Positions 9,399 to 59,492 of a stretch of 64,000 nucleotides of DNA are shown here, one piece after another. Every line of letters begins with the position of its first letter. The first letter of the stretch is position 1. The notes beneath the pieces were generated by a model. The model was not told the origin of the DNA. It did no database searches and was given only the letters and a program-made list of their open reading frames with translations. Both the position numbers and the translations under genes were made by a program. Source of the stretch: an uncultured Methanosarcinales archaeon. GTDB taxonomy: Archaea > Nanobdellota > Nanobdellia > Woesearchaeales > ARS49. Location: contig CAZTVK010000015.1 in NCBI GenBank assembly GCA_964617195.1, forward strand, positions 2,317-66,316, in the 5' to 3' direction.

Positions 9399-9503
9399 CG
9401 GGCCGTACGGGACGTTCAGTCGCGAACTCGCGCTCGCGAACTTTTGAACCCGCAACCCTCTGGTTAAAAGCCAGATGCTCTAACCAGGTTGAGCTAACGG
9501 CCC
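9399..9503 (-). tRNA. tRNA-Lys(UUU) with ~30-nt intron inside the T-loop
   Basis: Hand-folded. Acceptor GGGCCGT/ACGGCCC, D-arm GCTC..GAGC, anticodon arm TCTGG-CTTTTAA-CCAGA, T-stem GCGGG/CCCGT. The T-loop is interrupted by a structured ~30-nt insert (TTCGCGAGCGCGAGTTCGCGAC...). A TATA-like element (ggtataa) lies ~30 bp upstream. Confidence 0.75.
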
Positions 9504-30255: not shown

Positions 30256-31140
30256 TCAGTCGCCCAAAGCCTTCCAATACTCAGAAACAGGAACGTATTC
30301 AACCCAAGACTTGTCAATCTTCTGCTGACCGCCATAAAGAACCATGACGTCAAAGTAAGTATCCCTGAAGTCCACAGCTTGCGTACCCTCAACCTCAATC
30401 TTAATAGGAACTTGGTAACGCCTGTCAATCCTCAAAATAACACGCTTGCCATCAAGCATGTAATGCAAAGAAGGCTGGACAGTCTTTGAGTTTCCACCAA
30501 TACTAATAGTTTGAATGTTGTTTTCCACAAGAATAGGCTCCAGTTCAGAAAATTCTTTCAAATACTCTAAAGGACCTTTAGGAACCCATTTTTCATAAGG
30601 CACTGAAATCTCCTTGTCAATGTAGTCCTTGCACCTGCTTCTCTCGTACTCAAATGAATCATCCAAAATACGACCTTCCCGCTCGAGATTACAATAGGCG
30701 ACGGCCTCTTTTTTATCATGATCAACAAAAACATCAGTAATCGGAGTACGATCATCCAATTGAGACATCTTCAAAAACAAATGCCTGGACTTATTGCCAT
30801 AAACAATAACCATCCTGTCATCAAGCACAAAAGCATAACCTGTAAACTTAGTCTGAGCATCAGCCAGCAATTTCTTCGCGACAGGCATGGCCTCTGGAGC
30901 AGATTCAACGACAACCTTCGCAGGAGGCAAATCTTCAACAGAAGGCATGGTTTCAGCTTCCACAGGAGTTTCTTCCTTCACAGGACACTTGTCAACAGAA
31001 TCAGCAGTACTGCCATCCCAGCACTGAACGACAATCTTCTCAACACTCTTTTCTTCTGTTTTATTCTCAATTCCCGGCTGGACGTACGGCTGAGAAACAC
31101 ACGCTGCCAACAACAACAGAACCAAAAACCACTTTCTCAT
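30256..31140 (-). CDS. Secreted lipoprotein-like protein, paralog B
   Basis: Signal peptide MRKWFLVLLLLAACVSQ (start reassigned). Tandem paralog of 29363-30214. Confidence 0.6.
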   Translation of the reverse strand: MRKWFLVLLLLAACVSQPYVQPGIENKTEEKSVEKIVVQCWDGSTADSVDKCPVKEETPVEAETMPSVEDLPPAKVVVESAPEAMPVAKKLLADAQTKFTGYAFVLDDRMVIVYGNKSRHLFLKMSQLDDRTPITDVFVDHDKKEAVAYCNLEREGRILDDSFEYERSRCKDYIDKEISVPYEKWVPKGPLEYLKEFSELEPILVENNIQTISIGGNSKTVQPSLHYMLDGKRVILRIDRRYQVPIKIEVEGTQAVDFRDTYFDVMVLYGGQQKIDKSWVEYVPVSEYWKALGD

Positions 31141-31222
31141 TAAACTGCTGAGAAAGTTTGGAGAATAAAAAGATATCGGTGATAAAGAAAAAAAACTGCA
31201 GGGCTCTTGACCCTGCAGAGAA

Positions 31223-31351
31223 TCCCCGCGGCCGGATTTGAACCAGCAACCTTTCGGGCTCAACGTGCTGACCCACTATCATCCTGAGTTAATACTCCGT
31301 CTGTGGGCGACTACTCTACAGCCGAATGCTCTGCCGTTGAGCTACGCGAGG
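31223..31351 (-). tRNA. tRNA-Tyr(GUA) with a ~56-nt intron after position 37
   Basis: Hand-folded. Acceptor CCTCGCG/CGCGGGG, D-arm GCTC-AACGGCA-GAGC, anticodon stem TTCGG/CCGAA with loop CTGTAG + intron, T-arm GCTGG-TTCAAAT-CCGGC. TATA tttttaaaa lies ~28 bp upstream. Confidence 0.75.
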
Positions 31352-50302: not shown

Positions 50303-51646
50303 TTATTTTGACAACGAGACAACGGCAGAAGGCAGTATAACATCCAAAACTCCTTCAGAGAAATCACCTTCAAGCCTGTCCGCAAGACACGCATTAATAA
50401 GCGCTTTTGCCTTCAATTTCGACTTAACCTTGCACTTATCCGGATTCTGTTTCGGTCCTCTTTCTGGAGGCGACGGCATAGGAGATATCCCTGCATGAAC
50501 CATTGCATAAACACAAGACGAGTCCTTCCTATAGGCAGAATACGGAGTGAAACTTACCGGCCTAATTTTTGTTGCGGTCAACTCCAAATCAGCAGGAAGA
50601 GAAATATCGGCTTTCCCCTTGGACAGTTTTTCATCACTTCTGATTCTCCACATGAAAGGCTCAAAATGCATCAGATGACTTCCCGTACCATCATAGCCAC
50701 TGAAATCATAATGCCTGGTTTTTTGGTAAAGATCAAGCACTAACTTGCTCATTGTCTGGCCTTTGTCGTACATGTCATTAAGAATTTCACTTGCATCTGG
50801 ATCTGATATCGTAACTGTTCCTGGCTGACCGCTAATCCCCGGTTCGCCATGACAAATATTACCATCCTCATCAAGCCAGTATACTTTCAAAATACCGCCA
50901 GCAGGATCAATTGTTATTTTTAGTCCTGGCGGCAGCTCTTCAAACCACCGCGTTATATCAATTATCAATCCATTCTCACGCGGACCGCTTTTTTCTCCAG
51001 GCAAAATAGAAAGTAAAATGCCTTTCAAAAAGTCAATAACACCTACAAAGAACCCCTTTGGTTTCGGCTTTTCAACTACTAGCACATACTCTGCTTTTGG
51101 CTTTGACGTCATTTCCCTCTCATCAATCTCCAAAGGTTCAACCTCTACAGATTCAACATGCGGCGCAGGAGTTGGTTCAACAGGCGGAACAAATTTCGGC
51201 GGTGCAACAACAGGAATTGGTTCTTTTAGCACAGACTTGCAACCCTTGTTCGTACATTCCTGATATTTACCACACGTCAACTGAGTCTGCCAGACACCAT
51301 TAATACACATCTGGAAGTTCTGACGATCACAACGCTTTTCACCATAATAACACTCGGCCGGCCGAGCAGATGGCGGCTCTTCATAAGGCTCTTCCGGAAT
51401 CTGCATCACACCAGGAGGCACATAAGCAGGCTCTGTGCACCCTTGATTCGAATCACAGCCGTATTCACACTGTTGTATGGCCTGCCAATTCCCATTTACG
51501 CACTGCAAGAAAACATTGCCATCGCACTGAGTATCACCTTCATTACAAAAAGCAATGTTCTGACCAATATTAGGATCATAATACTGCGCAGAAACAACAG
51601 GAATAATCAGTAATAACAACACTAACAACACTACCTCTTTTTGCAT
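50303..51646 (-). CDS. Secreted protein with two N-terminal 6-Cys modules, a Pro-rich linker and a C-terminal domain of unknown function
   Basis: Signal peptide. Duplicated C..G.W......C.YGC...GC modules. PVVAPPKFVPPVEPTPAP linker. Confidence 0.55.
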   Translation of the reverse strand: MQKEVVLLVLLLLIIPVVSAQYYDPNIGQNIAFCNEGDTQCDGNVFLQCVNGNWQAIQQCEYGCDSNQGCTEPAYVPPGVMQIPEEPYEEPPSARPAECYYGEKRCDRQNFQMCINGVWQTQLTCGKYQECTNKGCKSVLKEPIPVVAPPKFVPPVEPTPAPHVESVEVEPLEIDEREMTSKPKAEYVLVVEKPKPKGFFVGVIDFLKGILLSILPGEKSGPRENGLIIDITRWFEELPPGLKITIDPAGGILKVYWLDEDGNICHGEPGISGQPGTVTISDPDASEILNDMYDKGQTMSKLVLDLYQKTRHYDFSGYDGTGSHLMHFEPFMWRIRSDEKLSKGKADISLPADLELTATKIRPVSFTPYSAYRKDSSCVYAMVHAGISPMPSPPERGPKQNPDKCKVKSKLKAKALINACLADRLEGDFSEGVLDVILPSAVVSLSK

Positions 51647-51737: not shown

Positions 51738-53003
51738 ATGTCAAAAATACTCGCAGTCAAAGCACGCCAAGTTCTAGACAGCAGAGGAAATCCTACTGTT
51801 GAGTGCGATATCAAGACAAACGACGGAATATTTAGGGCAAGTGTGCCATCAGGAGCAAGCACAGGCGCAAACGAAGCGCTTGAACTGCGAGACCACAAAA
51901 AAGAATTCTTAGGCAACGGAGTAATGAGAGCAGTCAATAATATAAACTTAATTCTGGCAAAAAAACTCAAAGGAAGAAACCCGACAACACAAGAAGAACT
52001 CGATAATTTAATGATAAAACTAGACGGAACTCAAAACAAAAGCAAACTAGGAGCAAACGCGATGCTTGCAGTCAGCATGGCGCTATCACGCGCAGGAGCA
52101 GCAGCGAAAAAACAACAATTGTACGAACACATCGGAGAATTATACGGCACGAAAAAATTCACACTGCCGATACCAGCATTCAACATCATAAACGGAGGAA
52201 AACACGCCGGAAACAAATTAGACATACAAGAATACATGATACTGCCAACAGGAGCCAAGAACTTCGCAGAAGCACTCCGCATAGGAAGCGAGATTTACCA
52301 CACTCTCAAGAAAAATCTGGAAAACCACTTCGGAAAGACAGCCATCAATGTAGGAGATGAAGGCGGATTTGCGCCTCCATTAACCTGCATAGAAGAGCCG
52401 TTTGACTACATCACAGACGCGATAATCAAGCTCGGTTATTGGAAAAAAGTAAAACTAGGCATAGACTGCGCATCAACAACATACTGGAAACACGGCACAT
52501 ACTACCTGGAAGGAAAAGAATACACGCCAGACAAGCTAGCAGAAAAATACCAAGAACTCGCCGACAATTATCCTCTAGTCAGCATCGAAGACCCATTCTA
52601 CGAAGAAGACTTTGAAAATTTCGCGAAATTAAACCGAAGATTAGTGAACACGCAAATAGTTGGAGACGATTTATTGGTAACAAACCCAAAAAGAGTCAGA
52701 AAAGCAATAACGATGAAAAGCTGCAACTGCCTTTTACTTAAGATTAATCAGATCGGCACGATAACAGAAGCGCTCGAAGCCGCAAAAATGGCCAAGAACG
52801 CAGGCTGGAACATCATGACATCGCACAGAAGCGGAGAAACAGAAGACAGCTTCATCGCTGATCTGGCAGTCGGCATTGCCTCAGGACAGATAAAGTCAGG
52901 AGCGCCATGCAGAGGAGAAAGATTAGCAAAATACAATCAACTATTACGCATAGAAGAAGAAACAGGAGCACCATATGCAGGAAAAACAATCAGATTTGCT
53001 TAA
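51738..53003 (+). CDS. eno: Enolase
   Basis: 421 aa with the SHRSGETED signature. Confidence 0.95.
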   Translation: MSKILAVKARQVLDSRGNPTVECDIKTNDGIFRASVPSGASTGANEALELRDHKKEFLGNGVMRAVNNINLILAKKLKGRNPTTQEELDNLMIKLDGTQNKSKLGANAMLAVSMALSRAGAAAKKQQLYEHIGELYGTKKFTLPIPAFNIINGGKHAGNKLDIQEYMILPTGAKNFAEALRIGSEIYHTLKKNLENHFGKTAINVGDEGGFAPPLTCIEEPFDYITDAIIKLGYWKKVKLGIDCASTTYWKHGTYYLEGKEYTPDKLAEKYQELADNYPLVSIEDPFYEEDFENFAKLNRRLVNTQIVGDDLLVTNPKRVRKAITMKSCNCLLLKINQIGTITEALEAAKMAKNAGWNIMTSHRSGETEDSFIADLAVGIASGQIKSGAPCRGERLAKYNQLLRIEEETGAPYAGKTIRFA

Positions 53004-53730
53004 GTTTGCGATCAGTTTAGCGAAGGAAAGCGCGCAAATTCTGAAAAGAATGCAAAAAAACGCTAAAATAGTGCAGGAAAAAGTTCAGGGAGACTTTGCG
53101 CTTAATGCTGACATCGCTTCTGAACAACACGTCATGAAAAGAATAAGGCAAAAATATCCAAGCCACGACATTCTCACAGAAGAATCAGGACACCACCACA
53201 AAGATTCCGAATACCTGTGGATAATCGACCCTCTCGAAGGAACGCTCAACTACGCGCATCATCTTCCAATATGGGCAGTTAACATAGGGCTTTTCTACAA
53301 AGGAAAACCATACCTAGGCGTCATATACGCACCCATCATTAAAGAATTATTCCACGCATCAAAAGGAAAAGGAACCTACCTGAATGGAAAAAGAGTGCAT
53401 GCCAACAAAGAAACAGACATCATGAAATCATTCTTTGCTGCAACAACAGCACAAATAAATGAAATACCAATAAGCCCAACAATAGTCAGAGGAATCGGCT
53501 GCGCCGGAGTTGAGCTCGCATATGTGGCATGCGGGCGCTTTGCAGCGAAAATAAAACTCAGAGGAAACGACCCATACGGATACGGAGCCGGAAGCATCAT
53601 AGTAATGGAAGCAGGCGGAAAAATAACGGACATGAAAGACAATCCGTGGAATTTGAAATCAAACGGCGCACTGGCAAGCAACGGAAAAATTCACGACAAA
53701 CTACTCAAGCTTCTCAGTAATACTTCTTAA
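52975..53730 (+). CDS. suhB: Inositol monophosphatase / fructose-1,6-bisphosphatase family protein
   Basis: WIIDPLEGT motif and IMPase fold blocks. Confidence 0.8.
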   Translation: MQEKQSDLLKFAISLAKESAQILKRMQKNAKIVQEKVQGDFALNADIASEQHVMKRIRQKYPSHDILTEESGHHHKDSEYLWIIDPLEGTLNYAHHLPIWAVNIGLFYKGKPYLGVIYAPIIKELFHASKGKGTYLNGKRVHANKETDIMKSFFAATTAQINEIPISPTIVRGIGCAGVELAYVACGRFAAKIKLRGNDPYGYGAGSIIVMEAGGKITDMKDNPWNLKSNGALASNGKIHDKLLKLLSNTS

Positions 53731-54397
53731 GAATATTGTGCTTATCAGTGGCTAATCTGACATGAGAAGGCAAGACAACGCTCTTCCATGACTTTCTCGT
53801 AAACGGAGGCGCTTTGCCTGAAGGAACGTCAACAAAATATTCAAAATAATCATCATACGGCATCTCCCACTTCATCATCTGCTGAATAGAAGCTTTCTCA
53901 AAATGCCGGCGGAAAGGACGCATGCTGTTGCCATGCGCTGAAATAGCGACGCTCACCTTATACTTCCTGATGAAGACTAGCAAGTCTTTGATGAACGAGT
54001 TAACACGACTTTCAACCATTTTCACACTCTCGCCCTTTGGCGGAGGAAAATTGTAAGCGCGATGGTATTTATCATACAATGCTTTGCCGTTTTCACGAAT
54101 AAAAGCAGCATGAGCACGACCTTGCAAAAGCCCATAACACCTCTCAAGCATCCTGTCGTCGCGAAAGACAACCTTGCACTCACGATGATGTTTAAGCACT
54201 TCCTTCAATGTTTCCTTAGAACGCGTCAAATTAGAAGAAAACGCGACATCAACACGCCGATTCCTGAGCTTCCTGCCAACCAGGGACGCATTCATCTTTC
54301 CTTTAACAGTCCACGTCGCGTCCTTCCACCCAGTAAACATCTTCCTCTTGTTAAAATGCGTCTGGCCATGACGGAACAGATAGATATAGCATTTCAT
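53714..54397 (-). CDS. Histidine phosphatase (phosphoglycerate mutase family)
   Basis: YIYLFRHGQT RHG motif. Start reassigned to the internal Met MKCYIYLF. Confidence 0.75.
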   Translation of the reverse strand: MKCYIYLFRHGQTHFNKRKMFTGWKDATWTVKGKMNASLVGRKLRNRRVDVAFSSNLTRSKETLKEVLKHHRECKVVFRDDRMLERCYGLLQGRAHAAFIRENGKALYDKYHRAYNFPPPKGESVKMVESRVNSFIKDLLVFIRKYKVSVAISAHGNSMRPFRRHFEKASIQQMMKWEMPYDDYFEYFVDVPSGKAPPFTRKSWKSVVLPSHVRLATDKHNILKKYY

Positions 54398-56190
54398 TTT
54401 CCAACTGCCTTGTTGTGCGCTTCTATATACCTTTCTATAAACAGCTTCCAATCAGCAGTAGCAGCAATCTTCTGCGCCATAATCTTGTTCTCAATCCGCT
54501 CCTTTGTCGTAAAGTGAGCAAACTGAGACATCATATCAGTCAAAGACTTGATAATCTCCTCAGTAGACTTTTTGAAACGTTGAAGCACGAAAATACCTGG
54601 ATACTTGCTCGGCGAACATTCCTTGCAAATATACTGGCCAAAACCAGAAAGATCAGTTGTAAGACTACTCACGCCGAGCGCTGCAGCCTCCAGAGGAGTA
54701 TACCCCCACGGCTCATAATAACTAGGGAAAACACCCAAATGACTGCCCTGCATACTCTCGTAATAACTGGTATCCAACAAGCCATCTGCGCCTGACAAGT
54801 AGATTGGATAGAAGACAATCTTGACAACATCATCAGGAGAATTGTCCAATCCAACTTCACGCAAAGTCTTCATAATCAAATCAGTATCTTCATCAAACAA
54901 GAAATGCGTGCTAAGCGGAGGCAAGCCTTTGCGCGCCAAACGCTTCAATTTAGGCCTGATCTCCTGAAGAAAATCATCACCAAGCAAAGACTTGTTGTTG
55001 ATATCTTTTCCCATAATCAACAATTCTGAAACCTTATTCTGCACGTCCTCATGCACTTCCTCAACGCTCTTCTTGATATCATTGAAAAACGTCCTGCTCT
55101 CCAAAAGCTCAGGACGGATTGCCTTAACATTACCCGGAATCCAGAAGAACGCCACAATCGTCTTTTCACACTTCTCAGCCTTCAACTGATCATTAAGCCT
55201 GCCTAACGCCTTTATGAAAACATCAACACCCTTATCATGAAATTCATACCGGCCTGCAAGGAAAAAAATCAAAGTATTCTCAATGTCGAAAGTATAATAG
55301 GGAAAGAAATAATACATCAAAAACTGCTTCATCCTGTTCTTGAAGAACTTGTGCTTCAAAGAAGCCTCCTCAAAAGACGGGAATTTAGACATGTCAAGAC
55401 CATTGAATAACAAAACATCAGGCTTCCTGCCAAGAAAATGCCCTGCTTCCATTCCAGTAATCTCGCTTACAGTCGTGAAAACATGAGCATTCTGAGCACT
55501 CTGCTTTTCCAGCGAATGCTTAGCCCAAACAGAAATGCCGAGACGCTTAGCCTCGCCATCACTGTCAATACTCTCCAACTGCTCGTAAATATCCCTTTCC
55601 TGCATTGCCAAAGAACGGCCCAAAGTAGTAGCATGAGTGGTAAAAACAGTGCCCACCCTGACATTTTCATGCCTTAAGTACAACAAGCCAGCGCCAGCAA
55701 GCCATTCATGAAAATGAGCAACGATCTTTTTCCCAGAAAACACCTTGCTTAATTCCTCAATAAGCCTGCCCACAGCATACGCCCACATTACAGGCTCGTC
55801 AAAATCAAACCAGTCCGTATTAAGACTGTCAATCTGATACCAATCCCACAATTTACGCTTAACATCGTTCTTCTGGACAGAGAAATTAGTAAAATCGACC
55901 AGCAAGGTATTCGGATTCCCTTTCGTTATCCAAGTGCCACAATGCACTTCAATGCCTTCCTGCTTAAGCTTCTCAAAAGCCCCCTTGCACTCCGCAGGAG
56001 GAATATGCTCCTCAAAAATACCCCAAGACTTCTTAGGAAAATACGGGCCAACCAAGAAATAATTATCCCCATAATGCTCTTTCATAGGCAGAATCTTGCT
56101 CTGCACAACCGTGAAAATCCCGCCAACCTTATTGCAAACTTCCCACGAAACTTCAAAACAAATCTCTGCCTTAGATTCCATTCTTAACAC
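54394..56190 (-). CDS. Glycogen synthase, eukaryotic type (GT3 family)
   Basis: FEVSWEVCNKVGGIFTV, VAHFHEWLAG, FTTHATTLGRS, HVFTTVSEIT, FFLAGRYEFHDKG and LGVFPSYYEPWGYTP are near-identical to animal/fungal glycogen synthase motifs. Confidence 0.85.
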   Translation of the reverse strand: MLRMESKAEICFEVSWEVCNKVGGIFTVVQSKILPMKEHYGDNYFLVGPYFPKKSWGIFEEHIPPAECKGAFEKLKQEGIEVHCGTWITKGNPNTLLVDFTNFSVQKNDVKRKLWDWYQIDSLNTDWFDFDEPVMWAYAVGRLIEELSKVFSGKKIVAHFHEWLAGAGLLYLRHENVRVGTVFTTHATTLGRSLAMQERDIYEQLESIDSDGEAKRLGISVWAKHSLEKQSAQNAHVFTTVSEITGMEAGHFLGRKPDVLLFNGLDMSKFPSFEEASLKHKFFKNRMKQFLMYYFFPYYTFDIENTLIFFLAGRYEFHDKGVDVFIKALGRLNDQLKAEKCEKTIVAFFWIPGNVKAIRPELLESRTFFNDIKKSVEEVHEDVQNKVSELLIMGKDINNKSLLGDDFLQEIRPKLKRLARKGLPPLSTHFLFDEDTDLIMKTLREVGLDNSPDDVVKIVFYPIYLSGADGLLDTSYYESMQGSHLGVFPSYYEPWGYTPLEAAALGVSSLTTDLSGFGQYICKECSPSKYPGIFVLQRFKKSTEEIIKSLTDMMSQFAHFTTKERIENKIMAQKIAATADWKLFIERYIEAHNKAVGK

Positions 56191-56348
56191 TCATCACTCA
56201 TGATTCAAAAAGTTTTCACACCACTCTACAGAGAGAACGACATTATCAGAACAGAAATGCCAATAACTACAGTAATGATGACGTAGATAGAATAAAGTTC
56301 AAACGCTTCCATGGTAAAAAGTTAATAAAAAAATAAAAATAAAAAAAT

Positions 56349-56969
56349 TTAGACGAATCCTGGGCGCTCTCCGCAACCCCATGCTCCATCTTGGATTGCT
56401 TGCGTGACGTCATTGATGACATCATCACGGCTCAAACCATACTGGTCAGACTTTGTAATCCAATCACCTGCAGTTAACTGCTGCATAGACATTGACATTC
56501 TTGCCAATGAAGCCCATGCTTGGTGCTCTTGGAAGCTGAGTGACACTGGTAGGTCTACACCGTTCAAGATGCTCAACCATGTGCATGCTCGGTATGACGG
56601 AATCTCTTCCAATTGTTCATTGTGAACAAGGTTCGTCTGACTGCTCACTGCACGTGCTTTGACTGATTCACCATATTGAGTTTCTGCAATTGGCTGGTAG
56701 TATCCTGGTCCACCAAGGCCTGAGAATCTCTCGCCTGAAGAACCGTCTGCTCCGCTTGGGAATTCATACGATCTTCCTGCAAATGCTCTCGATTCAGGGT
56801 CTGCGACACCTCTGACTGCTCCACCATATTCTTTGGCGGCTGGCACTGCGAACTCACCAACTGCTGACTTTCGCGCACCCGTGAAGAGTAGCACCAAACC
56901 AACAATCGCTATTATCGCAACTATGCCTAGAATTACAAGTGCGATTCCTTTTCCACTTTCTTCTGCCAC
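56349..56969 (-). CDS. Type IV pilin-like protein (class III signal peptide), paralog 1
   Basis: MAEESGKG|IALVILGIVAIIAIVGLVLLF. Positively charged N-terminus, KG cleavage context and hydrophobic helix. Confidence 0.65.
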   Translation of the reverse strand: MAEESGKGIALVILGIVAIIAIVGLVLLFTGARKSAVGEFAVPAAKEYGGAVRGVADPESRAFAGRSYEFPSGADGSSGERFSGLGGPGYYQPIAETQYGESVKARAVSSQTNLVHNEQLEEIPSYRACTWLSILNGVDLPVSLSFQEHQAWASLARMSMSMQQLTAGDWITKSDQYGLSRDDVINDVTQAIQDGAWGCGERPGFV

Positions 56970-57093
56970 AACTGATCACCTCGTTTAGTTGTTCTTAATC
57001 GTTTGTGTGTGTTATACACACACTGATTTATATACTTTTCGTTTTGTCAAAACGTACAATCGTTCTGACTATTTTCTAATGAAATAAAAAAAA

Positions 57094-57552
57094 TTAATTA
57101 ACGCCTGCGATTCCGCCGACCATTGTGTCTGGCGGGAAAACGCACACGCCTGGCTTGTCTCCAGCCTGCACAACATCATAACCAATCGATGCATAATATT
57201 CTGCCTGGTCGTTGTAAGGTACAAGGAAACCGCCGGATTCGCACTTTCTCATTGCGCTTGGAATGTCACTCACTGGGTTTCTCTTTGGGTCGCCGTAATA
57301 ATTCCAGCTAGTGTGCATGTCATTATACTGAGTTTGTCCTGGGATGTAATTAGGATTTTGGAATTCAGGAACGTTTCTTGGAACACCGCGACCAGTCCAG
57401 TACGGATACGGGACTTGCTTGATCGCTCCGCCGTAAACACCTTCACCAGTTGCGTTCTTGCCTTGAACGAACATTAAGACAAGACCAACAATTGCAATAA
57501 CGGCAACAATGCCTAGAATCACTAATGCTATACCTTTGTGTTCACTTGCCAT
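57094..57552 (-). CDS. Type IV pilin-like protein (class III signal peptide), paralog 2
   Basis: MASEHKG|IALVILGIVAVIAIVGLVLMF. N-terminus nearly identical to paralog 1. Confidence 0.65.
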   Translation of the reverse strand: MASEHKGIALVILGIVAVIAIVGLVLMFVQGKNATGEGVYGGAIKQVPYPYWTGRGVPRNVPEFQNPNYIPGQTQYNDMHTSWNYYGDPKRNPVSDIPSAMRKCESGGFLVPYNDQAEYYASIGYDVVQAGDKPGVCVFPPDTMVGGIAGVN

Positions 57553-57622
57553 TTTTTCACCTCGATTTTTCAGTGTTAACGAATGAAATACACTAATATA
57601 GGATTATGTATACTGGATATAT

Positions 57623-58066
57623 TTAAATGTTGCGTTTCTTGGGAAAATATTCTCTCACTAATAATAACAAAACGGCAATTGTGATAGCAGAATCAGCGAC
57701 ATTAAAAGCAGGCCAGAAATGGAAATCAATAAAGTCAATAACTGAGCCATAAAGAAGACGGTCTGCAAGATTTCCGAACGCTCCACCGAGGATAAGTCCC
57801 AAGATGGGCTGCAATTTCTGAGAGAAAGTTTTGTATTTCAAGATGAGAAATACGCTCACTGCTGCCGCAAAAATCACGAAAAACCACGACGCATTTCTGA
57901 ACAAACCAAAAGCAGTGCCGGTATTCAAGACATGAGTTAACGAGACGATTGGGAAATCTATAGACGAGTTAAGCGGAATAAATCTCAGGACGAAAAATTT
58001 AGAAACTCTGTCGAGAATCAAAACAGCGAGCGCTATGCTCCAGAATGCTAAGTGCTTGTTCGCCAT
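57623..58066 (-). CDS. lspA: Lipoprotein signal peptidase (signal peptidase II, LspA)
   Basis: LDRVSK, NTGTAFGLF, GGAFGNLADR, VIDFIDF and FNVADS correspond to the conserved LspA blocks, including the two catalytic Asp regions. Confidence 0.85.
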   Translation of the reverse strand: MANKHLAFWSIALAVLILDRVSKFFVLRFIPLNSSIDFPIVSLTHVLNTGTAFGLFRNASWFFVIFAAAVSVFLILKYKTFSQKLQPILGLILGGAFGNLADRLLYGSVIDFIDFHFWPAFNVADSAITIAVLLLLVREYFPKKRNI

Positions 58067-58487: not shown

Positions 58488-59492
58488 TTAACCATCACAT
58501 ACATCATCATCGTTCGCATCCAAGCAATAACACACCTGATTATCAGCAATAGTAACAAGCGATCCAGGAGGAGCTGAACTCAAAACAGAATTAGCAGTCA
58601 CGATGCCTACAAGAGGCAAGCAAGTGATTTGAGGCTTGACAACACCAATCGCGAAGCACGGATTACTTACTATTATCAAATTTCCTATACCCCAACTCTG
58701 ACTTCCAATATACCATGAAACGTCAATCTTGTCTGCCATCTTGTTCTCAAAGTCCAATATGCTGGCAAGAACCGCAGGACAACCACTCGTGCTCTGGGAA
58801 TCAGCAGCAACACCATTCAATGAAATAGTGGCTCCGATACTGTTCGAACACCAGTTGTGATGATGAGCAATATTTGGTTCAACAATCTTCAGCTTGTCAA
58901 CAACCCTTGCAGTGAAGCTCTTCGACCAAGAATTTCCAAAAGCCTGGCCGCTCGCAATATCCTCCTGCACGCAAACCTGACAGACATTTCCGACACCATT
59001 CGAATCACTATCAGCCTGATTATAGTTTGCAACGTTCACGCAATTATCGCAAACATCACCGCGCTTATCCCTATCAGCATCAGCCTGATCAGCATTAGAA
59101 GTCATAGGACAATTATCAATAACATTGGCAACACCATCGCCATCAAGATCAGGAAGAATATCAGTAACGTCCATCACCACAATAAAAGATCTGGGCGGCT
59201 GAACATACTTAATAATCGCGTATTTAGTAACGGTTCCACGCTCTGAAGTAGCAGTAATCTTACGAGAACCAAGAGGAACATTTGAGAATGTTGCGATACC
59301 GCCACTGGTAGTTGTCTGCGTGCACATAGTCGGATAAGCATCATCACACATGTCAATAATCACTCCTGGCGCTCTAGGACTGGTAGCAATTTGCACTTTG
59401 GTGGTTTGAGGACCGGTAGCCCTGCCAGGACCAATGCAAGACGCGATTAATAATAAAGAGAGAACTGCTAATACCATCACCAGCTTTTTCAT
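58488..59492 (-). CDS. Lipoprotein with thrombospondin type-3 (Ca-binding) repeats
   Basis: Signal peptide with lipobox LLIASC. DLDGDGVANVIDNCP, NADQADADRDKRGDVCDNC and NQADSDSNGVGNVCQVC repeats. Confidence 0.65.
   Translation of the reverse strand: MKKLVMVLAVLSLLLIASCIGPGRATGPQTTKVQIATSPRAPGVIIDMCDDAYPTMCTQTTTSGGIATFSNVPLGSRKITATSERGTVTKYAIIKYVQPPRSFIVVMDVTDILPDLDGDGVANVIDNCPMTSNADQADADRDKRGDVCDNCVNVANYNQADSDSNGVGNVCQVCVQEDIASGQAFGNSWSKSFTARVVDKLKIVEPNIAHHHNWCSNSIGATISLNGVAADSQSTSGCPAVLASILDFENKMADKIDVSWYIGSQSWGIGNLIIVSNPCFAIGVVKPQITCLPLVGIVTANSVLSSAPPGSLVTIADNQVCYCLDANDDDVCDG

Follow-up and report, generated by a model that had tools for sequence, protein, structure and literature searches.

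GT3 glycogen synthases (glycosyltransferase family 3), the family of human GYS1 and yeast Gsy2p, are also on record for archaea. A 2024 Chemical Reviews article describes GlgA-GT3 proteins in DPANN archaea and in Euryarchaeota and gives a GT3 phylogeny; true glycogenin is undetectable in DPANN (PMC11046441). Glycogen storage has been proposed as a hallmark of many DPANN, and cultured nanohaloarchaea express glycogen genes (PMC10266531). For Woesearchaeota, glycogen synthase transcripts have been reported for metagenome-assembled genomes (MAGs), and Woesearchaeales genomes are reported to encode members of GH57, GH133, GH13 and GH15 (PMC11606122). KEGG K00693 occurs in 68 of 123 (55%) complete Woesearchaeales genomes (2026 preprint, bioRxiv 10.64898/2026.05.13.725050). 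We analysed a gene of this kind, which lies on the minus strand of a 64-kb stretch (64,000 nucleotides, hereafter the window) of contig CAZTVK010000015.1, from an assembly (GCA_964617195.1) deposited as an uncultured Methanosarcinales archaeon and placed by GTDB among the Woesearchaeales. A sequence-only reading had proposed that it encodes a eukaryotic-type GT3 glycogen synthase. The call is correct, and the DPANN GT3 glycogen synthase was already known from CAZy and KEGG annotation, from the 2024 review and from genome surveys.

Judging from its sequence, the gene very probably encodes a functional GT3 enzyme, a retaining alpha-1,4-glucan synthase of GT-B fold, which belongs to a clade widespread in Woesearchaeota and has no recent eukaryotic source. 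What the review (PMC11046441) does not contain, and is presented here in preliminary form, is the comparison of regulatory residues, the predicted coupling to a phosphoglycerate mutase (PGM) gene with displacement of one type of mutase by another, the pairing of GT3 with GalT-like genes, and the closeness of the DPANN enzymes to those of the bacterial candidate phyla radiation (CPR).

Family, fold and active site

The open frame is uninterrupted from 54394 to 56190 on the minus strand, and would give 598 amino acids (aa) if read from the GTG at 56190. Since the 12 close homologues compared are 594 to 597 aa long and begin with ME/DxKAE..., we place the true start at the ATG of position 56181, for a protein of 595 aa; the frame proposed earlier is thus right, and its start is not. 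The three motifs quoted in support of the GT3 call are all found in this frame. Two of them, VAHFHEWLAG (55693-55722) and LGVFPSYYEPWGYTP (54694-54738), are 100% identical in human GYS1 and yeast Gsy2, and the third, FFLAGRYEFHDKG (55228-55266), agrees with human FFIAGRYEFSNKG in 10 of its 13 residues. The similarity is far above chance: the Pfam family Glycogen_syn (PF05693, equivalent to CAZy GT3) gives 526.6 bits (E = 1.3e-157; gathering score 27), and GYS1 is matched at E = 4e-127.

The Pfam match extends over the full length of the protein (residues 13-596, against profile positions 1-583 of 639), whereas the GT5 domain PF08323 reaches 24.1 bits, on residues 126-243 only. The NCBIfam models for GlgA, the GT5 enzyme, remain below their cut-offs (NF001899, 28.6 bits against 459; TIGR02095, 26.9 against 328). 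Secondary Pfam matches of 24 to 35 bits are found with Glycos_transf_1, Glyco_trans_1_4, GT4-conflict and Glyco_transf_5, in the shared nucleotide-binding region and mostly at residues 478-566. Among solved structures (PDB), the top matches extend over nearly the whole protein and are human GYS1, yeast Gsy2p (1e-118) and Caenorhabditis elegans gsy-1 (2e-118); the best GT5 structure, Pyrococcus GlgA, is matched locally, over about 55 residues (E = 1.5e-4).

An AlphaFold2 model of the protein (pLDDT 83, pTM 0.74; input alignment of 13 sequences) shows a GT-B fold with a helical insert and a C-terminal regulatory helix (Table 1). Compared with Foldseek to 39 GT3 chains, it gives query-normalised template modelling (TM) scores of 0.88 to 0.92, about 600 columns being aligned to Gsy2p or GYS1, against 0.33 to 0.49 for GT5 and GT4 enzymes (0.45 to 0.49 for GT5). 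DSSP assigns two helices to the insert (357-389 and 402-415), and this stretch aligns to GYS1 and Gsy2 without large gaps. GT5 enzymes have neither the helical tetramerisation insert nor the regulatory helix. No signal peptide or membrane segment is seen in the model.

Roles of residues in catalysis, donor binding, glucose-6-phosphate (Glc6P) binding and phosphate sensing were taken from the cryo-electron microscopy study of human GYS1 (PMC9287172). Human Lys39, His205, Arg211, Arg331, Lys337, Glu510 and Glu518 are K18, H183, R189, R311, K317, E490 and E498 in the window protein, and Trp512, Gly513 and Tyr514 are identical as well. All ten of these active-site residues (Lys39 to Glu518) are unchanged in 120 close homologues. 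They are also kept in DPANN, CPR, the Planctomycetes-Verrucomicrobia-Chlamydiae (PVC) group, Bacteroidota and eukaryotes, with the exception of position 39, where most PVC and Bacteroidota sequences have Gln; Glu510 and Glu518 are invariant in all five aligned groups. Some numbers in the text of the GYS1 study ('His287', 'Arg311' and 'Lys19') disagree with the GYS1 sequence, in which residue 287 is Phe and residue 311 is His; for our mapping, His297 (yeast His286) and Lys39 were used, which agree with the roles described and with the numbering of the yeast enzyme, and Arg311 was dropped.

Regulatory residues and phylogenetic position

The window protein is short at both ends, with 16 residues ahead of NKVGG (37 in human GYS1) and 101 after EPWGY (223 in human GYS1). 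The termini are too short to contain any counterpart of phosphorylation sites 2, 2a, 3a and 3b. The phospho-sensing arginines 579, 580, 588 and 591 are replaced by Thr, Lys, Met and Lys, in columns that vary across DPANN, and the cysteine pocket found at the GYG1 interface is missing. At the Glc6P site, the residues that hold the phosphate are for the most part kept (His297 as His277, Lys301 as Lys281, His501 as His481 and Arg582 as Arg562), as is Glu292 (Glu272); Arg586 is changed to Lys566 and Arg579 to Thr559. In the 120 close DPANN homologues, position 582 is Arg in 118 and position 586 is Lys in all. We predict from these residues that the protein is a GT3 synthase of standard catalysis, which lacks phospho-control and has a reduced and altered hexose-phosphate pocket, which is possibly functional.

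A different picture emerges for the GT3 proteins of Planctomycetota/PVC and of Cytophagales among the Bacteroidota (L042-L083; L-numbers designate loci of GT3 relatives in other genomes). These carry the full eukaryote-type set, His291, Gln294 and Arg579/580/582/586, and all are devoid of phosphorylated tails. CPR proteins (L015, L017, L019, L029 and L030) have the DPANN-type residues, with Glu at 291 and Lys at 586.

The phylogeny was built by neighbour-joining with Kimura distances from 226 GT3 sequences and 586 columns, with 100 bootstraps and midpoint rooting. The set comprised the window protein, the human and yeast enzymes (taken from PDB alignments), 78 named GTDB loci, close DPANN sequences and 137 unlabelled representatives; its five eukaryotes are all Amorphea, it holds no labelled Methanosarcinales GT3, and one clade, of fused proteins of about 1,400 aa, is unlabelled. 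A deep split with a long branch and 100% bootstrap separates Planctomycetota/PVC, Bacteroidota, Bdellovibrionota and eukaryotes from DPANN, Altiarchaeales and CPR. The complete regulatory set of the PVC and Bacteroidota enzymes supports this split independently. The eukaryotes form a clade (91% support) inside the PVC/Bacteroidota group, made up of human, yeast, Dictyostelium, the chytrid Cladochytrium and one further representative. The window protein is placed inside a Woesearchaeota clade at 100% bootstrap; bootstraps along the backbone of the DPANN/CPR half are 0 to 30. The term 'eukaryotic-type' of the sequence-only reading is therefore appropriate as a family name and not as a statement of affinity, since in this tree eukaryotes group with PVC and Bacteroidota rather than with DPANN. 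In the maximum-likelihood tree of the review, unspecified Bacteroidetes fall inside DPANN (PMC11046441), whereas the Cytophagales sequences of our tree fall outside.

The CPR enzymes are much nearer to the Woesearchaeota enzyme (45 to 51% identity) than are those of other bacteria (35 to 38%). Together with the regulatory residues that the two groups share, this closeness points to an exchange of the gene between DPANN and CPR, a relation absent from the review (PMC11046441) and for which we claim no direction.

Relatives are numerous. A word-indexed search returned at least 7,999 at E <= 1e-10, and the best 120 of these 7,999 clusters are all proteins of about 595 aa with 56 to 96% identity, the named ones being Woesearchaeota, Nanoarchaeota and Aenigmarchaeota; no record of the identical 595-aa sequence was found in a contig index, and the closest database sequence is 96% identical to the window protein. 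An exhaustive search of 1.84 billion representatives at 50% identity gave 506 matches at E <= 1e-30. A GT3 relative was found in at least 597 of 185,579 GTDB species (at least 0.3%), among DPANN, Altiarchaeales, CPR/Patescibacteria (45 to 51% identity), Planctomycetota/PVC, Cytophagales (35 to 38%) and a few others. The idea that GT3 enzymes are rare in prokaryotes thus holds overall and fails for the host lineage, given the 68 of 123 complete Woesearchaeales genomes cited above.

Among the GTDB matches listed, the closest GT3 is that of a 'Candidatus Woesearchaeota' MAG from Lac Pavin sediment, with 83% identity and the same local gene order. The window itself contains archaeal markers, namely split RpoA'/A'' and RpoB'/B'', GINS51, aIF2alpha, a PAC2 proteasome-assembly factor, an S-layer protein and a tRNA gene with an intron, and its G+C content is even throughout the GT3 region. 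Because of these markers, of the Woesearchaeota relatives with shared synteny and of the uniform G+C, we consider the gene as native to a DPANN genome. Seven GTDB records (L006, L010, L013, L018, L020, L022 and L054) are titled 'uncultured Methanosarcinales archaeon' (TPA, third-party annotation); their GT3 nests inside Woesearchaeota clades, as for L013, which groups with L031 at 100% bootstrap, and the labels of these seven records look unreliable on the basis of these placements.

Gene neighbourhood

Directly downstream of GT3, and overlapping it, lies a co-oriented gene of the His_Phos_1 family (Table 1). It had been described as a PGM-family phosphatase; the family is confirmed, and the protein is most probably a true phosphoglycerate mutase of the cofactor-dependent type (dPGM) rather than a phosphatase. 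It passes the cut-off of the NCBIfam subfamily model TIGR01258 pgm_1 (99.1 bits against 81.7), all equivalog models staying under theirs. Its best PDB match is the Schizosaccharomyces pombe enzyme 1fzt, a short phosphoglycerate mutase (1.5e-23), and the two catalytic His motifs are found at residues 9 (RHG) and 155 (HGN). The other two neighbours named by the sequence-only reading, an IMPase/FBPase-family gene (inositol monophosphatase and fructose-1,6-bisphosphatase) and an enolase gene, were likewise located with Pfam and NCBIfam profiles. The IMPase-family protein is under the equivalog cut-offs for HisN, FBPase/IMPase and SuhB; enolase is clear (TIGR01060, 526.8 bits against 300).

Table 1. 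Coordinates, within the window, of the GT3 gene, its internal elements, its neighbours and other features
Feature	Position	Strand	Remarks
GT3 glycogen synthase gene	54394..56181	minus	595 aa; ATG start at 56181, TGA stop at 54394-54396
E-X7-E catalytic/ribose-binding pair, Glu490-Glu498	54688..54714	minus	human Glu510-Glu518; inside the YYEPWGYTPLE motif
Helical hairpin insert, residues 357-415	54937..55113	minus	counterpart of the GT3-specific tetramerisation domain
Regulatory helix counterpart (GYS1 alpha24), residues 559-575	54457..54507	minus	helix in the AlphaFold2 model; carries Arg562 and Lys566 (human Arg582 and Arg586), and none of the phospho-sensing arginines
ATGA overlap	54394..54397	minus	GT3 stop TGA shares two bases with the mutase ATG; read as GGA AAA TGA AAT GC
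dPGM-type phosphoglycerate mutase-like gene	53714..54397	minus	227 aa; PF00300, 2e-31; co-oriented with GT3
IMPase/FBPase-family phosphatase gene	52975..53730	plus	PF00459, 5.7e-55; convergent on the mutase gene, 17-nt overlap of 3' ends
Enolase gene	51738..53003	plus	PF00113 and PF03952; upstream of the IMPase-family gene and overlapping it
Intergenic region 5' of GT3	56182..56348	minus	167 nt; T-rich tract after the preceding gene
tRNA gene with a 60-nt intron in the anticodon region	31223-31351	minus	Rfam, 52 bits; missed by ARAGORN
Marginal tRNA match	9436-9496	minus	30.4 bits against a gathering score of 29; model positions 8-63 only
Predicted secreted cysteine-rich protein	50303-51646	minus	447 aa; no family match
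Predicted secreted protein	58488-59492	minus	334 aa; thrombospondin type-3 (calcium-binding) repeat

The block GT3/PGM/(IMPase)/enolase/aIF2alpha recurs in relatives whose GT3 is 61 to 83% identical. Enolase is syntenic in L001-L005, and the IMPase-family gene is kept between PGM and enolase in L001, L002 and L005. In L003, L004 and L005, the gene that follows GT3 is a co-oriented His_Phos_1 gene (11841-12488 in L003); in L001, L002 and L007, the same slot is taken by a cofactor-independent mutase (iPGM; Metalloenzyme plus iPGM_N domains; 11791-13278 in L001, 9830-11302 in L007). This unrelated enzyme thus takes the place of dPGM in a relative with 66% identity, on a 323-kb contig, and follows GT3 in L007, a relative with 55% identity. 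Such non-orthologous displacement speaks for a working glycolytic mutase next to GT3, and against a phosphatase dedicated to glycogen. A phosphatase specific for glycogen or sugar phosphates was set aside as a candidate for this gene, given the dPGM subfamily cut-off that is passed and the iPGM found in the same slot.

Upstream of GT3, an A/T-rich stretch about 30 nt ahead of the ATG is a possible archaeal TATA box. Further upstream, within 56349-58066 on the minus strand, a bacterial-type lipoprotein signal peptidase, LspA (TIGR00077, 104 bits), is accompanied by small open reading frames (ORFs) devoid of family match; LspA and small ORFs recur 5' of GT3 in L001, L003 and L005. In two of the ORFs, 56349-56969 and 57094-57552, the N terminus carries nearly the same hydrophobic segment, KGIALVILGIVA(I/V)IAIVGLVL(L/M)F.

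A profile search of the 64-kb window found no glycogenin (GT8), branching or debranching enzyme, phosphorylase or NDP-sugar pyrophosphorylase, and none of the GH57, GH133, GalT-like or GT4-like partners. No ORF of at least 230 aa in the window matches GT8, and GT8 is outside the 25 commonest neighbour families at 41 distant DPANN and CPR loci. At these 41 loci, the two nearest ORFs on either side of GT3 show an enrichment in GDE_C/GH133 debranching enzymes (16), GH57 (11), a second transferase that is GT4/GT5-like (11) and GalT-like nucleotidyl-transferases of the HIT family (10). Neighbours of these kinds are partners of the glycogen pathway, and support the functional assignment of the clade. 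ORFs of about 315 aa directly 3' of GT3 proved to be GalT-like in 10 of 10 cases tested (PF01087/DUF4921/DUF4931/HIT). These pairs (L009, L018, L019, L020, L022, L024, L025, L026, L033 and L035) come from Woesearchaeota and from one CPR genome, a Paceibacterota. The pairing may indicate that the donor is supplied by an enzyme of the GalT or NDP-glucose-phosphorylase type, and not by a pyrophosphorylase.

Elsewhere in the window, the intron-containing tRNA gene overlaps the start of a listed ORF (30256-31263). The marginal tRNA match, just downstream of the RNA polymerase operon, has an anticodon loop CUUUUAA (Lys-UUU?) and an unaligned acceptor stem; the match may represent a tRNA that is atypical, split or degenerate. 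The two predicted secreted proteins of Table 1 could be surface proteins, or serve in host interaction, in an episymbiotic DPANN cell.

Proposed function and comparison with known systems

If the assignment is right, the enzyme would lengthen an alpha-1,4-glucan at its non-reducing end with glucose from a nucleotide-sugar, most likely UDP-glucose by analogy with eukaryotic GT3. The active site would work as in GYS1 and Gsy2, and oligomerisation through the helical insert would probably be the same too. Regulation would be simpler than in eukaryotes, with neither phosphorylation tails nor phospho-sensing arginines; a basic pocket made of His277, Lys281, His481, Arg562 and Lys566 at the Glc6P site might bind a hexose phosphate. 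We infer that GT3 and the dPGM-type mutase gene are co-transcribed and translationally coupled. This pair faces the enolase/IMPase-family pair, an arrangement by which glycogen synthesis would be tied genetically to lower glycolysis and gluconeogenesis, and which would fit the storing of gluconeogenic or scavenged carbon.

The question arises as to whether a protein of another family or origin could present these features. A divergent GT5 (GlgA-type) or GT4 enzyme might be misread as GT3 through a few common GT-B motifs, and the weak Pfam matches of 24 to 35 bits over the shared nucleotide-binding region are what such an enzyme would leave. However, these are to be compared with a full-length GT3 match of 526.6 bits; the GlgA models stay more than 300 bits under their cut-offs, Pyrococcus GlgA is matched only locally, and TM scores are 0.33 to 0.49 with GT5 and GT4 against 0.9 with GT3. 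Neither the best matches nor the position in the tree fall within GT5 or GT4. We therefore reject this identity, whose likelihood is next to nil, and the GT3 assignment stands on Pfam, NCBIfam, PDB matches, predicted fold and tree alike. Just as improbable is that the gene came recently from a eukaryote by horizontal transfer, or that it stems from eukaryotic contamination or a chimeric assembly. Such an origin could be invoked for the two motifs of 10 to 15 residues that are 100% identical to human and yeast, and for an identity to GYS1 (38.7%) slightly above that to Planctomycetota and Bacteroidota (36 to 37%). Yet the identical motifs are those of the active site, invariant in the whole family. 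The gene also overlaps the next archaeal gene by 4 nt, in a syntenic block common to Woesearchaeota contigs of up to 580 kb; G+C is uniform in the region; the protein has at least 120 DPANN homologue clusters at 56 to 96% identity, and eukaryotes are split from DPANN and CPR at 100% bootstrap. Synteny, gene overlap and tree thus lead us to reject a recent eukaryotic source or contamination.

A more serious alternative accepts the GT3 fold and questions the product, which might be an unbranched or surface alpha-glucan, or glucose added onto a non-glucan acceptor, with a role in the envelope or in host interaction of an episymbiotic DPANN cell. The window offers no branching enzyme or other glycogen gene; LspA and small predicted membrane or secreted proteins lie directly upstream of GT3, an arrangement kept in L001, L003 and L005; and no archaeal GT3 has been assayed (PMC11046441). 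However, all residues by which GYS1 binds donor and glucose are conserved, the model displays no signal peptide or membrane segment, distant DPANN and CPR members adjoin classical glycogen partners (GH133 debranching enzyme, GH57 and GalT-like genes), and Woesearchaeales have the reported GH57, GH133, GH13 and GH15 enzymes (PMC11606122). We consider this alternative as unlikely, and retain a glycogen-type alpha-1,4-glucan synthase.

Several points nevertheless weigh against this assignment or parts of it. As no archaeal GT3 enzyme has been biochemically characterised (PMC11046441), donor, product and kinetics rest on homology. The residues contacting glucose at the Glc6P site differ in DPANN (His291 is Glu271 and Gln294 is Ser274, besides the Arg586 to Lys change), so that the enzyme may have lost its allosteric activation, or may be activated by another ligand. 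Confidence of the AlphaFold2 model is low at residues 462-494, around the catalytic loop, probably because its alignment held just 13 sequences. The synteny of GT3, PGM and enolase is limited to relatives with at least 61% identity (55% for L007) and may reflect genome compaction rather than coupling. Finally, the glycogen partners are absent from the window, which weighs against presuming a complete pathway in the organism.

On a broader scale, one may wonder whether GT3 of DPANN and CPR represents a minimal prokaryotic form of the enzyme, which would prime itself without glycogenin, be controlled only through a reduced hexose-phosphate pocket, and obtain its donor via a GalT-like enzyme instead of a pyrophosphorylase. 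We put this forward tentatively, as an idea that has some chance of being right and a greater one of being wrong. If true, together with the arginine cluster of PVC and Bacteroidota, it would mean that Glc6P allostery is of prokaryotic origin and that the phosphorylation layer alone is eukaryotic. The comparison of regulatory residues, and the placement of eukaryotes with PVC and Bacteroidota, bear on the timing of eukaryotic glycogen synthase regulation. As a discovery, the gene itself has small weight, DPANN GT3 being already present in annotation, review and surveys. It does offer a compact, tail-less version, of 595 aa, of a medically important enzyme, and possibly a tractable model for the function of the Glc6P pocket, for self-priming and for the nucleotide-sugar used.

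Compared with known systems, the window protein is most remote from GT5 GlgA, as in Pyrococcus abyssi and Escherichia coli glycogen synthase. The two share the class of retaining GT-B alpha-1,4-glucan synthases and the nucleotide-binding E-X7-E region, but belong to different CAZy families, with a local match of 50 to 60 residues and neither helical insert nor regulatory helix on the GT5 side. The PVC and Bacteroidota enzymes, 36 to 37% identical to it, resemble it by their length (about 590 aa) and the absence of phosphorylation tails, and differ by the full eukaryote-type regulatory set and by a Gln in place of the Lys39 common to DPANN and human. With the eukaryotic enzymes (GYS1, Gsy2p and gsy-1), it shares about 38 to 39% identity over some 580 residues, two Rossmann domains with the helical insert (TM 0.9), identical catalytic, UDP-binding and glucose-binding residues, and part of the residues binding the Glc6P phosphate; unlike them, it is devoid of sites 2/2a/3a/3b, of the phospho-sensing arginines and of the cysteine pocket of the GYG1 interface, and there is no glycogenin gene in the window. 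From the GlgA-GT3 clade of DPANN, to which it belongs with 56 to 96% identity to at least 120 clusters, it differs in nothing essential except its local context: in the subclade of the window the partner of GT3 is a phosphoglycerate mutase gene, and in other DPANN it is a GalT-like, GH133 or GH57 gene.

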